Shown: positions 56,329-59,457 of the stretch, piece by piece
Layout of the letters: each line of letters begins with the position of its first letter
Numbering within the stretch: the first letter of the stretch is position 1
Assembly (NCBI GenBank): GCA_963777605.1
Contig: CAVZRV010000008.1
Location: 64,001-128,000 of the forward strand
Direction of reading: 5' to 3'
DNA: 64,000 nucleotides
Source of the DNA: an uncultured Acidobacteriota bacterium
GTDB taxonomy: Bacteria > Acidobacteriota > UBA6911 > RPQK01 > JAPXNP01
Program-made: the position numbers and the translations under genes
The notes under the pieces: generated by a model
What the model saw: the letters and a program-made list of their open reading frames with translations, nothing else
Told to the model about the DNA's origin: nothing
Database searches by the model: none

Positions 56329-57093
56329 CTAGCTCTCGGGCGTCTTAAGACCCATCTCCCGAACGGGAGGCTCGGCAGCGGACTCAGATTCCTGAGGTGG
56401 TGCCTCCGTCGGGCCAAGGTCGAGCCCGTAGGCAGACGCAAACTCGGCCAGGGCCTGGTCGGCCATCGCCTCCTGCTCCGCCTCCTTCAGCTGCACCTCG
56501 CTCATATCAATGGAGGAAGAGGCGACCCGGGCCCGCCCGGCAGCCTTGTCTCTGCGCTCCGTGAGGTATTCCTCGACGCGTGAAATGGTGTCGCCGGTGC
56601 CGCCGATCGAACTGATCATGCCCTGGGCCATTTCCTGAAGTTCGGCCTGGGCCTCCATCAGCTCGGTCTCCGAGATCATCCGCTTCAGGGATTCGATCTT
56701 CGCCCGGGCCTCGGTAACCGCTACTTCCCGCGTCTTCACCAGTTGCTGGTAGGTCTGCTCCTGGGCCTCCAACTGCTGCCGGTTTTCCTCGAGCTGCTCC
56801 TTGACCGTTCGCAACTGGAGCGCGTACTGCCCCGCCGCCGTGCGGTTGCCCGCCTTCAGGTGTGCAGCCGCCTTTCCGGCCAACTCCCGTTCCTGTGTTT
56901 CGAGGTTCTTGACCTGGCGCATCAAGCGCTCGATGAACCCGGCGTGGTTTGCCAGGTTGTCGTTGAACCGGGCAATCTGCCCCCGCAGGTTCTCCTTCTC
57001 CGCTTCGATCAATGCCTGCGGGTTGGCGCGTTCGATGCCCGAAATGAAAAGGCTGAGAAAGCCTTTGAACAGGTTACTGACTCGTCTCCACAT
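56329..57093 (-). CDS. pspA: PspA/IM30 family protein
   Basis: Amphipathic N-terminus MWRRVSNLFKGFL, IERANPQALIE, long coiled coil and acidic tail. Confidence 0.82.
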   Translation of the reverse strand: MWRRVSNLFKGFLSLFISGIERANPQALIEAEKENLRGQIARFNDNLANHAGFIERLMRQVKNLETQERELAGKAAAHLKAGNRTAAGQYALQLRTVKEQLEENRQQLEAQEQTYQQLVKTREVAVTEARAKIESLKRMISETELMEAQAELQEMAQGMISSIGGTGDTISRVEEYLTERRDKAAGRARVASSSIDMSEVQLKEAEQEAMADQALAEFASAYGLDLGPTEAPPQESESAAEPPVREMGLKTPES

Positions 57094-57474
57094 GCCCCCT
57101 CCTTCAGCCTGAGTCCAGACAGACTTCGGTCACACTCGTTCGTCGTAGAGCATGATCTTCCTTCCGGGGTTATCGCTCATGCTCGCCGTTGCTCGAAGGC
57201 GAATCTGGTTCAGACCGGCGCAAGCCCCTGAATCTGCGGAAGAACATATCATCGTTGCCCGAAAAAAAGATACTGGTGGCGGCGGAGTTTTATTCAAGAT
57301 TGTTCCTCGCCATGCTCTGGAAACCGATCAAGGCGGACAGGCCGGGTTAGTTGACACAATCCGCCACCTGCAGCCCGATTAGTGGCACAATTCAGTCTGC
57401 TTCCATCGGACGGAGAGCGACGCCGGGCAAAGTGAGGGTGGCCGGCTGATGGATTGAAGCGGAGGCCTGATGCC

Positions 57475-58428
57475 ATGAGCGAAACCATCGTCTTCCTGAC
57501 TGATCACGGTTACCTGGTGGTGTTTCTCTGGGTTCTTGCCGAACAACTCGGCCTTCCTCTCCCGTCCTCGGTCGTCCTGCTGGTGGCCGGGGCGGCCGCC
57601 GCATTTGGACAACTCTCGCTCGGAACCGTGGTACTGGTGGCCCTGGTTGCCTCCACGATCAGTGACGTCATCTGGTACGAAATCGGCAGGAGACGGGGGA
57701 TGGCGGTCCTGGGACTGCTTTGCAGGATCTCTCTGGAACCGGACTCCTGTGTGCGCCGTACAGAAGAGCGGTTTGCCCGTCACGGAGTCCGCTCCCTCCT
57801 CATTGCCAAGTTTGTGCCCGGCCTCAACACTGCGGCGCCGCCACTGGCCGGCATGTTCCAGATGGGTTTCTGGCGATTTCTACTCTTCGACGTTCTCGGC
57901 GGCCTTTTCTGGATCGGGACCTCCACCATTCTGGGCTACCTCTTCTCCCGCCAACTGGAGGACCTGGTCGGATGGGCGCGCCAGTTCGGGCTCGGAGTAG
58001 GGATCTTGTTGGGGCTTTGCGCGCTCTTGTACGTCGGATGGAAATTCATGCAGCGTCAGCGTTTCATTCGTGAGATCAGCGTTTCGGCGATTGCTCCGGA
58101 TGAACTCAAGCAAATGCTCGACTCCGGCGAGTCTCCGTTGATCGTCGATCTCCGCCACGGCGTTGATATTGCCGCCAACCCCGTTCGACTCCCCGGAGCA
58201 CTGCAAATGTCCCCCTCGGCGATTCGGGATGGGAAGACCCGCCTTCCAGGCGATCGTGAAATCGTCCTCTACTGCACCTGACCGAACGAGGCCTCCAGCG
58301 CCCGGGTGGCGCTGCAACTGAAGCGGCTCGGAATCGAGCGCGTGCGCCCGCTGCGGGGTGGTCTGAACTCCTGGCGGGAACTGGGTTACCCACTGGAAAG
58401 TCAGGTTGAGGGGCACTTCAACCTGTAG
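57475..58428 (+). CDS. DedA (VTT)-rhodanese fusion, probable selenoprotein (Sec at TGA 58279-58281)
   Basis: EQLGLPLP and AKFVPG (DedA); IVDLR..LPGA..IVLYCT-TGA-PNEASSARVA..VRPLRGGLNSW continues in frame to TAG at 58428. Confidence 0.85.
58282..58314 (+). promoter_or_regulatory. Candidate bacterial SECIS element
   Basis: CAGCGCC-CGGGT-GGCGCTG hairpin with its G-rich loop about 21 nt 3' of the in-frame UGA. Confidence 0.65.
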
Positions 58429-58440
58429 AATGGTTCTGAA

Positions 58441-59457
58441 ATGGAAAAGAAAGTCAAAATCGGAGTCGTCGGCCTGGGCTTCATGGGCCTCACCCACCTC
58501 CAGGCTTATCGAAATATGAACAATGTGGTCCTTGCCGCCGTTTGCAGCAGCGACCCGAAAAAGCTCTCGGGCGATTTATCCGGCATCTCCGGGAATCTGG
58601 GAAACAGCGGCGAGAAAATGGACTTTGGAGACGCGGCCCGTTACGCGGAAGCGCTTTCAGTGATCGAAGATCCGCGAGTCGATGCGATTGATCTCTGTGT
58701 CCCGACCGACCTGCACGACAAACTGGCCGCGGCCGCTCTCGATGCCGGCAAACACGTCCTGGTTGAAAAACCGATGGCGCTGAATGAAGACGCCTGCCGG
58801 AGGATGATCCGTGCGGCCGACCGGTCCTCACGGGTCCTGATGGTCGGTCAGGTGCTGCGATTCTGGCCCGAATACCGGGAAGCCCAACGGCTCGTTTCAG
58901 ACGGAACGCTCGGTCAGGTCAGGTACGCGACCTTCAATCGACGCTGCGGAACCCCGAAGTGGGGCGGTTGGCTGCGCGACCCGGCCCGAAGCGGAGGAGG
59001 GGCCTTCGATCTTCTCATCCACGATTTCGACTTTGCACTCTACCTGTTCGGGCTTCCCCGCGCGATTCGAGCCGGGGGCTATTTGAGGAGCGACAATACC
59101 ATCGACCTGGTTCATGCCGATCTGGAAACATCCGATGGAGCCCGGGTCAGGGTTTCTGGCGGCTGGTACCCGGGAGAAGTGCCGTTCGGGGCGAACTTCA
59201 CGATTGCTGGAGACAAAGGGACGCTGGAGTTCACTTCGGCAGGGGGCAAACTGATCCTGTACCCGAACGAGGGGACCGAATCTGTTGTCGAGGCGGCCGG
59301 TGATCCCTTCCAGGGGGAGTTGACGGAGTTCATCCGCTGCTGTCTCGCCGGCAAGCCCAGCACAATCTGCCCGCCCGCGCAGTCGGCCCAGTCCGTAACG
59401 GTCACCAATGCCGCGCTGGTGGCCCGCGCCACCGGCGAAGCCCAAACTCTGGTCTAA
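58441..59457 (+). CDS. Gfo/Idh/MocA oxidoreductase (cytoplasmic)
   Basis: VVGLGFMG, VPTDLH, LVEKPMA, GQVLRFWPEY and DLLIHD motifs. Confidence 0.92.
   Translation: MEKKVKIGVVGLGFMGLTHLQAYRNMNNVVLAAVCSSDPKKLSGDLSGISGNLGNSGEKMDFGDAARYAEALSVIEDPRVDAIDLCVPTDLHDKLAAAALDAGKHVLVEKPMALNEDACRRMIRAADRSSRVLMVGQVLRFWPEYREAQRLVSDGTLGQVRYATFNRRCGTPKWGGWLRDPARSGGGAFDLLIHDFDFALYLFGLPRAIRAGGYLRSDNTIDLVHADLETSDGARVRVSGGWYPGEVPFGANFTIAGDKGTLEFTSAGGKLILYPNEGTESVVEAAGDPFQGELTEFIRCCLAGKPSTICPPAQSAQSVTVTNAALVARATGEAQTLV

Follow-up and report, generated by a model that had tools for sequence, protein, structure and literature searches.

A DedA-rhodanese gene of an uncultured Acidobacteriota bacterium with a predicted selenocysteine in a C-x-U active site

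We have studied a gene within a 64,000-nucleotide stretch of DNA from an uncultured Acidobacteriota bacterium (assembly GCA_963777605.1, contig CAVZRV010000008.1, positions 64,001 to 128,000 of the forward strand). This whole stretch is termed the window, and positions are numbered within it. The gene encodes a DedA-type membrane domain followed by a rhodanese domain, and comparison with its relatives indicates that an in-frame UGA in the rhodanese active site is very probably decoded as selenocysteine (Sec, U). Using translation table 11, the open reading frame (ORF) 57454..58281 (+) closes with ...IVLYCT-TGA, the TGA occupying 58279-58281. After the TGA the same frame remains open for 48 sense codons (PNEASSARVALQLKRLGIERVRPLRGGLNSW...), closing with TAG at 58426-58428. 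These two observations were the basis of the original prediction, and direct reading of the DNA confirms them. Starting at the ATG at 57475 gives a product of 317 residues with U at position 269, for which the TGA at 58279-58281 is the single in-frame interruption. It lies in the motif LYC-T-U-PNE, where LYCTU corresponds to residues 265-269. The alignments of relatives begin at residue 1 of this ATG-started protein. The features of the locus are collected in Table 1.

The TGA falls inside the active-site stretch of the rhodanese domain, and from the Pfam bounds the tail that follows it completes the domain. The claim that the tail does so is therefore upheld, the match to residues 208-302 spanning the codon. 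The gene was also described as hidden, and this too is borne out by the gene call in the window and by four database relatives, all of which end at the TGA.

The relatives were compared at the codon in question. Among the 120 best database homologues, 115 are full length with Cys at the column of U269, in agreement with the expectation that DedA-rhodanese proteins carry YCxCPNE at this point. The remaining five, of 268-284 residues, end ...LYCT and include the gene call made for the window itself. When genomes were searched with stop codons read through, the protein was found in four of 61 close relatives (the genome of the window included), each time with one in-frame TGA. The protein is common in the phylum, an even sample of which gave 71 positive genomes out of 401, with 80 matches; 45 of the matches contained one TGA and 35 contained none. 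A Sec form is thus present in 45 genomes, and 26 more have a Cys form only. We fetched the loci of all 45 TGA matches and of 25 of the 35 others. TGA directly follows [YF]C[TAS] in 45/45 of the former (44/44 if locus L044, from a genome, G083, flagged as unpublished, is left out), and the sequence continues as P-[NS]-E in 38 and as [LAI]-[RNK]-[ED] in seven. All 25 of the latter have TGC or TGT at the same codon. A scan of one genome per species provided a further 80 loci, 48 with TGA and 32 with TGC or TGT; one of its search patterns contained C-x-C, so that this sample leans toward Cys forms. With the two sets pooled and one duplicate discarded, there are 92 Sec and 57 Cys forms, all distinct. 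The pairing of Cys and UGA that had been proposed as a check is clearly present at this codon, and the aligned codons place Sec where the second Cys of the motif would be, as was predicted.

The TGA of the Sec forms is kept in relatives down to 36% identity. By record title the named loci are mostly metagenome-assembled genomes of Acidobacteriota type, and TGA forms also occur under the labels (as deposited) Nitrospirota, Rokubacteria/Methylomirabilis, 'delta proteobacterium', Chloroflexota, Planctomycetota and Dormiibacterota. A FastTree phylogeny of 149 sequences, built with the Sec/Cys column masked, requires at least eight changes of state, seven of them forced by well-supported branches; with shuffled labels the same tree needs 37-54. 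Clades of Cys forms are nested among Sec rows, and Sec is found on both sides of the midpoint root. The pattern fits repeated replacement of Sec by Cys, although the tree is unrooted and so does not itself give the direction.

The codon was also sought in metagenome assemblies. Contigs from four independent runs (soil, rhizosphere and sediment) show no other letter at 58279-58281, which speaks against a different codon in the reads, and one contig of 151 nt is identical over 58131-58281. Nearly all of these contigs match only approximately 58259-58320, i.e., the UGA and the hairpin described below, and have unlike flanks; overall, matches lie mainly within 58131-58409. None of the public runs contained half or more of the sampled words of the stretch, the best share being 0.14, and no RNA run was listed among those containing the gene.

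We observed separately that no other piece of the gene family is as conserved at the nucleotide level as the 50-60 nt containing the UGA and the hairpin (58259-58320).

Insertion of Sec in bacteria would call for a bacterial selenocysteine insertion sequence (bSECIS), and a candidate is found immediately 3′ of the UGA. The predicted 7-bp GC hairpin with loop CGGGU is confirmed at 58296-58314, formed by CAGCGCC and GGCGCUG, with a calculated energy of −12.5 kcal/mol for a 26-nt piece. It starts 17 nt from the TGA (58279 to 58296), and its loop begins 21 nt after the UGA. The bSECIS model given in the review PMC13188914 has a loop of 3-9 nt, an upper stem of 4-16 bp, a minimum free energy of −7.5 kcal/mol or lower, a G in the first two loop positions that is usually followed by G or U, and 16-37 nt from UGA to loop. 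The window hairpin falls within all of these published ranges, with a 5-nt loop, 7 bp, 21 nt and −12.5 kcal/mol. Its loop has G at position 2 followed by G, and the K (G or U) at the third loop position of the family corresponds to the G[G|U] of the model.

The significance of this hairpin comes from comparison with relatives. An 11-nt core, GCC-CGKGY-GGC, is found from 18 nt past the UGA (nucleotides 22-32, counting the U as 1). It is exact in 89 of the 92 Sec forms and in none of the 57 Cys forms. The three Sec forms that lack the exact core have GCCAGTCTGGC (twice) and GTCCGTGTGGC (once), which still pair. The constraint is evident at the third positions of codons +6 to +10, where the entropy is 0.47 bits in Sec forms versus 1.37 bits in Cys forms. 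Of the 92 Sec forms, 91 use GCC for the Ala at +7; in Cys forms codon +7 is GCC in 29, GCG in 23, GCA in two, GCT in two and GGC in one. The Arg codon at +8 is CGT in 55 Sec forms and CGG in 35 but never CGC, the codon that is commonest in Cys forms (14/23). Five Cys forms encode A-R-[V/A]-A using other codons, and none of these has the core.

An alignment of 44 Sec sequences gives a consensus stem of 4 bp (columns 21-24 with 30-33) closed by a 5-nt loop. The pairs 22-32, 23-31 and 24-30 are standard in 44/44, two being invariant and one having a single U-G. At 21-33, 33 sequences have C-G, four have G-C, two have U-A and one has U-G, and in four the pair is broken; it is kept through two-sided changes in six of the 44. 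In this alignment 82.6% of cells are paired, versus 62.1% at most in slid structures. The lower stem varies by clade, being contiguous in the group that includes the window, interrupted by a one-base bulge in a second and nearly absent in a third. The mean hairpin energy in a 26-nt window is −10.3 kcal/mol for Sec forms and −4.8 kcal/mol for Cys forms, and −7.5 kcal/mol or lower is reached by 36/44 of the former and 3/25 of the latter.

A few Cys forms labelled Nitrospirota do keep a hairpin where the SECIS would lie: L166 has AGCGCC-CGGAC-GGCGCU, with TGT at the codon, and L091 has AGCGCC-CGCAU-GGCGCU. This is as expected shortly after a change from Sec to Cys.

The sequence beyond the UGA behaves as coding. 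Within 32 codons after it there is no stop in any of 90 Sec forms. Column entropies over codons +11 to +31 are 0.79, 0.68 and 1.61 bits at positions 1, 2 and 3 in Sec forms, compared with 0.61, 0.38 and 1.33 bits upstream of the UGA, and 0.78, 0.54 and 1.50 bits in Cys forms. A stop-free tail with its highest entropy at the third position indicates a translated and selected sequence, not a remnant.

The genome of the window contains the machinery for Sec insertion. Profile searches found SelA (430 bits), SelB (354 bits, cut-off 242) and SelD (363 bits), and ARAGORN identified one tRNA-SeC(tca). The counterparts of selA, selB, selC and selD, for which the original prediction had suggested a search, are thus all present. 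The selD gene (G000:C7:931111-932034, minus strand) has an in-frame TGA of its own, so that the SelD of this genome is probably itself a selenoprotein; it lies approximately 11 kb from the tRNA-Sec gene (C7 942798-942896, complement). In the phylum sample SelA was found in 45/45 genomes with a Sec form and in 4/26 with a Cys form only, against a background of 301/401; this tally includes three genomes flagged as unpublished (G018, G202 and G083). SelA would be necessary for the insertion of Sec, and no TGA form occurs in a phylum-sample genome without detected SelA. The code is not globally changed, since TGA is an ordinary stop in the window, where it ends 27 of 49 long frames.

Taken together, these comparisons indicate that UGA269 is very probably decoded as selenocysteine, and that the gene is, with the same high probability, a true selenoprotein gene which annotation has taken for a truncated DedA gene. 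A number of observations count against this, however. Selenium in the protein is a prediction from the comparison of sequences. Taken alone the hairpin is at chance level (an 81-nt fold gives z = 0.60, and 139 of 200 shuffles are equal or better); its energy is unremarkable in DNA of 60% G+C, which is why its significance comes only through the relatives. Compensatory changes are seen at only one of the four consensus pairs, and the covariation score of 0.094 is matched by slid controls (0.095 at +1, 0.141 at +3), so that we dropped this score as evidence. In the 26-nt window, eight of the 44 hairpins of Sec forms fall short of the required −7.5 kcal/mol, and the first and last loop bases are unable to pair, unlike the commonest bSECIS pattern. 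The genome (G000) is in 53 contigs with an estimated contamination of 5.68%, and its sel genes lie on contigs other than that of the window. The co-occurrence of SelA with Sec forms provides only two independent contrasts, there being only two Sec/Cys changes on the tree of 70 rows, and so has no statistical power. Cys forms are common in genomes without detected SelA, which indicates that the job of the protein is not selenium metabolism as such. Lastly, clustering the flanking ORFs of 30 loci revealed no conserved neighbour gene, the largest cluster comprising six of the 30, from close kin.

Could the UGA be read through without Sec? A near-cognate Trp, Cys or Arg tRNA might decode it, helped by the hairpin and by a leaky UGA-C context, and C does indeed follow the UGA directly in 40 of the 45 Sec forms of the phylum sample. 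Yet every one of the 45 TGA-form genomes has SelA, the spacing and loop of the hairpin fit the rules for SelB-type bSECIS elements, the partner residue is always Cys, the usual counterpart of Sec, and the nearest curated family, NF041203, is a selenoprotein family. We therefore regard read-through of this kind as very unlikely. Still less probable, indeed highly improbable, is that the TGA is a true stop, leaving a decayed or truncated DedA protein of 268 residues with the 48 downstream codons as an untranslated remnant. Gene callers interpreted it in this way, P0002 and four relatives end in LYCT, and no stop is commoner in the window than TGA; against this, the codon is kept in 92 relatives of widely differing sequence, the tail is coding-like and free of stops in 90/90 forms, and termination here would leave a rhodanese fold severed halfway through the active-site stretch. 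A sequencing or assembly error for TGC or TGT, which has in its favour only the general possibility in a metagenome-type assembly, is extremely improbable, given TGA at the codon in 92 independent assemblies and the agreement of the metagenome contigs, including the identical one of 151 nt.

If U269 is accepted as Sec, the next consideration is its place in the active site. Both C267 and residue 269 (Sec or Cys) are invariant in the family. In the AlphaFold model Y266 is the last residue of the central strand and P270 the first of the following helix, leaving C267-T268-U269 as the entire connector. Gapless HMMER alignments (to both domains of 6mxv and to 3iwh) place residue 269 on the catalytic Cys and keep the C-x5-[S/T] spacing. 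The alignments disagree, and this too must be set against the proposed reading, for gapped ones (3tp9, 6pfz and 5ve3) place C267 on the catalytic Cys. On balance, sequence comparison moderately favours U269 rather than C267 as the nucleophile, since loop and helix length then match without gaps, and since in known rhodanese selenoproteins Sec is at the catalytic position. Rhodanese domains hold sulfane sulfur as a persulfide on the active-site Cys. Sec at such a site is a better nucleophile and leaving group, and with a Cys two positions from it the adduct can be resolved to a selenenylsulfide.

The model of the whole protein, based on an alignment of 55 sequences, has a mean predicted local distance difference test score (pLDDT) of 83.1 and a predicted template modelling score (pTM) of 0.69. 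It shows nine helices over residues 2-204 and then a small alpha/beta domain. The residues K190, R194, R196 and R199 come after the last long helix, and from this basic run the rhodanese domain is probably cytoplasmic by the positive-inside rule. A Foldseek search with the model matched 3tp9, 6mxv, 3nhv, 3gk5, 3iwh, the persulfide-dioxygenase fusion 5ve3 and CoADR-RHD, among others. All the listed matches cover approximately 96-139 aligned columns and are rhodanese-type or related small-domain entries; none among them is titled as a solved DedA structure. The DedA half contains a Cys pair of its own, C83-x8-C92. The C-x8-C arrangement occurs in 148/148 relatives whose sequence extends over it. 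None of the other three DedA paralogues in this genome has it, so that here it is specific to the rhodanese-fused type, and the pair may act together with the C-x-U site.

How does this protein compare with known systems? The closest is NF041203, 'rhodanese_LYCAU', which is the best NCBIfam match (residues 199-309) and has the same domain type with an L-Y-C-x-U motif. Members and near-members in the same phylum share the hairpin core, likewise placed 21 nt past their UGA. The NF041203 model, described as a rhodanese-related (seleno)protein, covers approximately 126 positions of a stand-alone domain, to which the window protein adds a 200-residue DedA domain and the CX8C pair. We reject membership, the scores of 81.4 bits (protein) and 77.1 bits (genome search) lying below the curated cut-off of 115. 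C-x-U rhodanese selenoproteins have already been catalogued, as 'form 3' in the table of PMC13188914. What we describe is a known selenoprotein domain type in a new architecture, fused to a DedA membrane domain.

The Cys-type DedA-rhodanese fusions have the same two domains at 45-55% identity, with YC-x-C-PNE in place of YC-T-U-PNE; they differ in having Cys rather than Sec and in lacking the SECIS core. In the source databases they are named 'membrane protein DedA with SNARE-associated domain/rhodanese-related sulfurtransferase' or 'DedA family protein/thiosulfate sulfurtransferase GlpE'. A fusion of this kind was noted in PMC10127716, where its link to the flipping of undecaprenyl phosphate (UndP) is called 'unclear', and PA1209 of P. 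aeruginosa is a Cys-type example in PMC12893004. The passages on these fusions in the two papers assign them no function. A Sec-containing DedA-rhodanese was not found in the literature searched or in the main text and table of the 2026 review PMC13188914, whose supplements, like those of the primary catalogues it cites, could still list one; the main text of that review contains none of the terms DedA, VTT, SNARE, PF09335, antiporter, exchanger or PF00999.

Other relatives are more distant. The membrane half shares PF09335 with the COG0586-type DedA proteins and the UptA undecaprenyl-phosphate flippases, which have neither a rhodanese domain nor the CX8C pair. Scores against DedA PRK10847 (67 bits) and UptA (56 bits) are both below the NCBIfam cut-offs; with 56.1 bits for NF052604 (cut-off 250) and 50.4 bits for NF052605 (cut-off 300), the UptA equivalogs were rejected. 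The TsoB family (NF045694), a rhodanese/DsbD fusion-like selenoprotein, likewise joins a rhodanese to a membrane redox protein (E = 0.0012, 17 bits), but it has another membrane partner and two Sec residues (UxxxxU), and its cut-off of 805 is far from reached. YgaP of E. coli (PDB 5hbo/5hbl; Foldseek rank 45, E = 2.5e-3) is a rhodanese tethered to the inner membrane, differing in its short anchor, its single catalytic Cys and the lack of Sec.

The same C-x-U rhodanese with the hairpin core is found elsewhere in the phylum. In four genomes it forms the C terminus of Na_H_Exchanger (PF00999) transporters. These fusions are of approximately 565-575 residues, have the motif [YF]CAUPNEATSARVAQ and carry the core 21 nt after the UGA, and would be a second transporter-linked selenoprotein architecture. 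Stand-alone C-x-U rhodaneses also occur, several with a signal-peptide-like N terminus. Two of these, L169 (118.5 bits) and L170 (116 bits), pass the NF041203 cut-off, and L169 lies approximately 6 kb from the SelA gene of its genome on the same contig. Around the window gene itself the neighbours are PspA/IM30, two Gfo/Idh/MocA oxidoreductases, an OmpA/NMT1-like gene, an ABC transporter and a sulfatase, with no sulfur- or selenium-specific gene among them.

Table 1. Features of the DedA-rhodanese gene and its surroundings in the window, and related loci in other genomes (L, locus; G, genome)
Feature	Location	Strand	Basis or remark
Whole gene, 317 codons + TAG, UGA-Sec at codon 269 (predicted)	57475..58428	+	Full-length homologues of 310-335 aa
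GGAGG, Shine-Dalgarno-like, 9 nt upstream of ATG	57461..57465	+	Read from sequence
DedA/VTT membrane domain, aa 29-155	57559..57939	+	Pfam PF09335, 57.5 bits (cut-off 33.9)
Cys pair C83-x8-C92 (LCRISLEPDSC), DedA half, helix-loop-helix	57721..57750	+	Invariant in 55/55 aligned rows
Rhodanese domain, aa 208-302, interrupted by UGA	58096..58380	+	Pfam PF00581, 39.5 bits (cut-off 22.2)
Cys267 codon TGC, first residue of C-x-U	58273..58275	+	Invariant in 121/121 aligned sequences
UGA as selenocysteine U269 (predicted)	58279..58281	+	TGA/Cys codon pairing in relatives, Sec machinery
bSECIS hairpin (candidate), stem 58296-58302/58308-58314, loop 58303-58307	58296..58314	+	Folding, family comparison
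Stop codon TAG	58426..58428	+	Frame reading
PspA/IM30-family gene, divergent neighbour	56329-57093	-	Not conserved beside the gene in relatives
Gfo/Idh/MocA oxidoreductase, starts 12 nt after TAG	58441-59457	+	Not conserved beside the gene in relatives
Na_H_Exchanger-rhodanese fusions	L176 (G092), L177 (G350), L178 (G121), L183 (G114); L177:1495-3216	- (L177)	
Stand-alone C-x-U rhodaneses, ~120-175 residues	L169 (G199), L170 (G312), L185 (G107), L179, L184		

From these elements a mechanism may be sketched, which would include the selenium-dependent sulfur or selenium transferase site joined to DedA of the original prediction. The product would be a 317-residue inner-membrane selenoprotein, with a DedA/VTT domain, a last helix followed by the basic run, and a C-terminal rhodanese domain bearing C267-T-U269-P-N-E. 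SelB and Sec-tRNA(Sec) would insert Sec at UGA269, guided by the hairpin with its loop CGGGU. The selenolate of U269, aided by C267, could then act as an acceptor of sulfane sulfur (or selenium), or as a redox centre closing to the selenenylsulfide. Tethering to the membrane would couple this rhodanese chemistry to a transporter driven by the proton-motive force (PMF), such that either sulfur or selenium species are handled at the cytoplasmic face, or the redox or sulfane-sulfur state of the cytoplasm gates the transporter. Without the Sec machinery, the same protein would work with Cys at position 269.

The second form of coupling can be taken further, with the C-x-U rhodanese being a redox or sulfane-sulfur sensor that gates the transporter, rather than a catalytic sulfurtransferase acting on a transported substrate, by analogy with the cytoplasmic regulatory domains of cation/proton antiporters. 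C-x-C-type motifs can cycle between thiol and disulfide. Finding the cassette on the PF00999 transporters as well as on DedA, two unrelated PMF-dependent families, speaks for a general role, in sensing or as an accessory, rather than for one tied to a particular substrate, and the lack of conserved partner genes among the 30 loci points in the same direction. Against it, the stand-alone versions bearing signal peptides fit an enzyme better than a gate, and such exported forms favour enzymatic function. We consider the sensor a tentative possibility that deserves to be kept in mind.

A more specific scheme would combine these elements. The C-x-U rhodanese with its SECIS could be a portable selenium-dependent cassette that soil bacteria carry at the cytoplasmic end of at least two unrelated PMF-driven transporter families, DedA and the Na+/H+-exchanger-type cation-proton antiporters (CPA), and which in the DedA protein forms a thiol/selenol relay with the CX8C pair that traps imported sulfur or selenium or switches the transporter. 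We view this idea as doubtful as it stands. If the relay were real, it would be a candidate for a dedicated uptake route for selenium or sulfur, which according to the 2026 review PMC13188914 has not been identified. Selenite uptake has been linked to a DedA protein of Ralstonia metallidurans in PMC11422209; the primary work is reportedly that of Ledgham et al. 2005, which is among the references of PMC10127716.

It is unlikely that C83, C92, C267 and U269 together form a metal(loid) site, the protein handling a soft metal(loid) and not sulfur. All four residues are conserved across the family, and the rhodanese fold is common to arsenate reductases. Most predicted transporter-associated selenoproteins are moreover implicated in metal(loid) resistance (PMC13188914). 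No metal-resistance gene adjoins the gene in the window, however, where PspA, the Gfo/Idh/MocA oxidoreductases and the ABC transporter are found instead.

On the reading that UGA269 encodes Sec, the selenoproteome of soil Acidobacteriota-like bacteria gains a membrane protein. With correct annotation the rhodanese domain, the role of which in DedA proteins is called unclear in the literature, regains its active site. The frozen 11-nt hairpin core offers a simple search key with which such genes might be found in metagenomes and their annotation repaired. The presence of Sec at a C-x-C site would mark that site as chemically important, and the Sec and Cys forms provide a natural pair for the study of DedA-rhodanese proteins.

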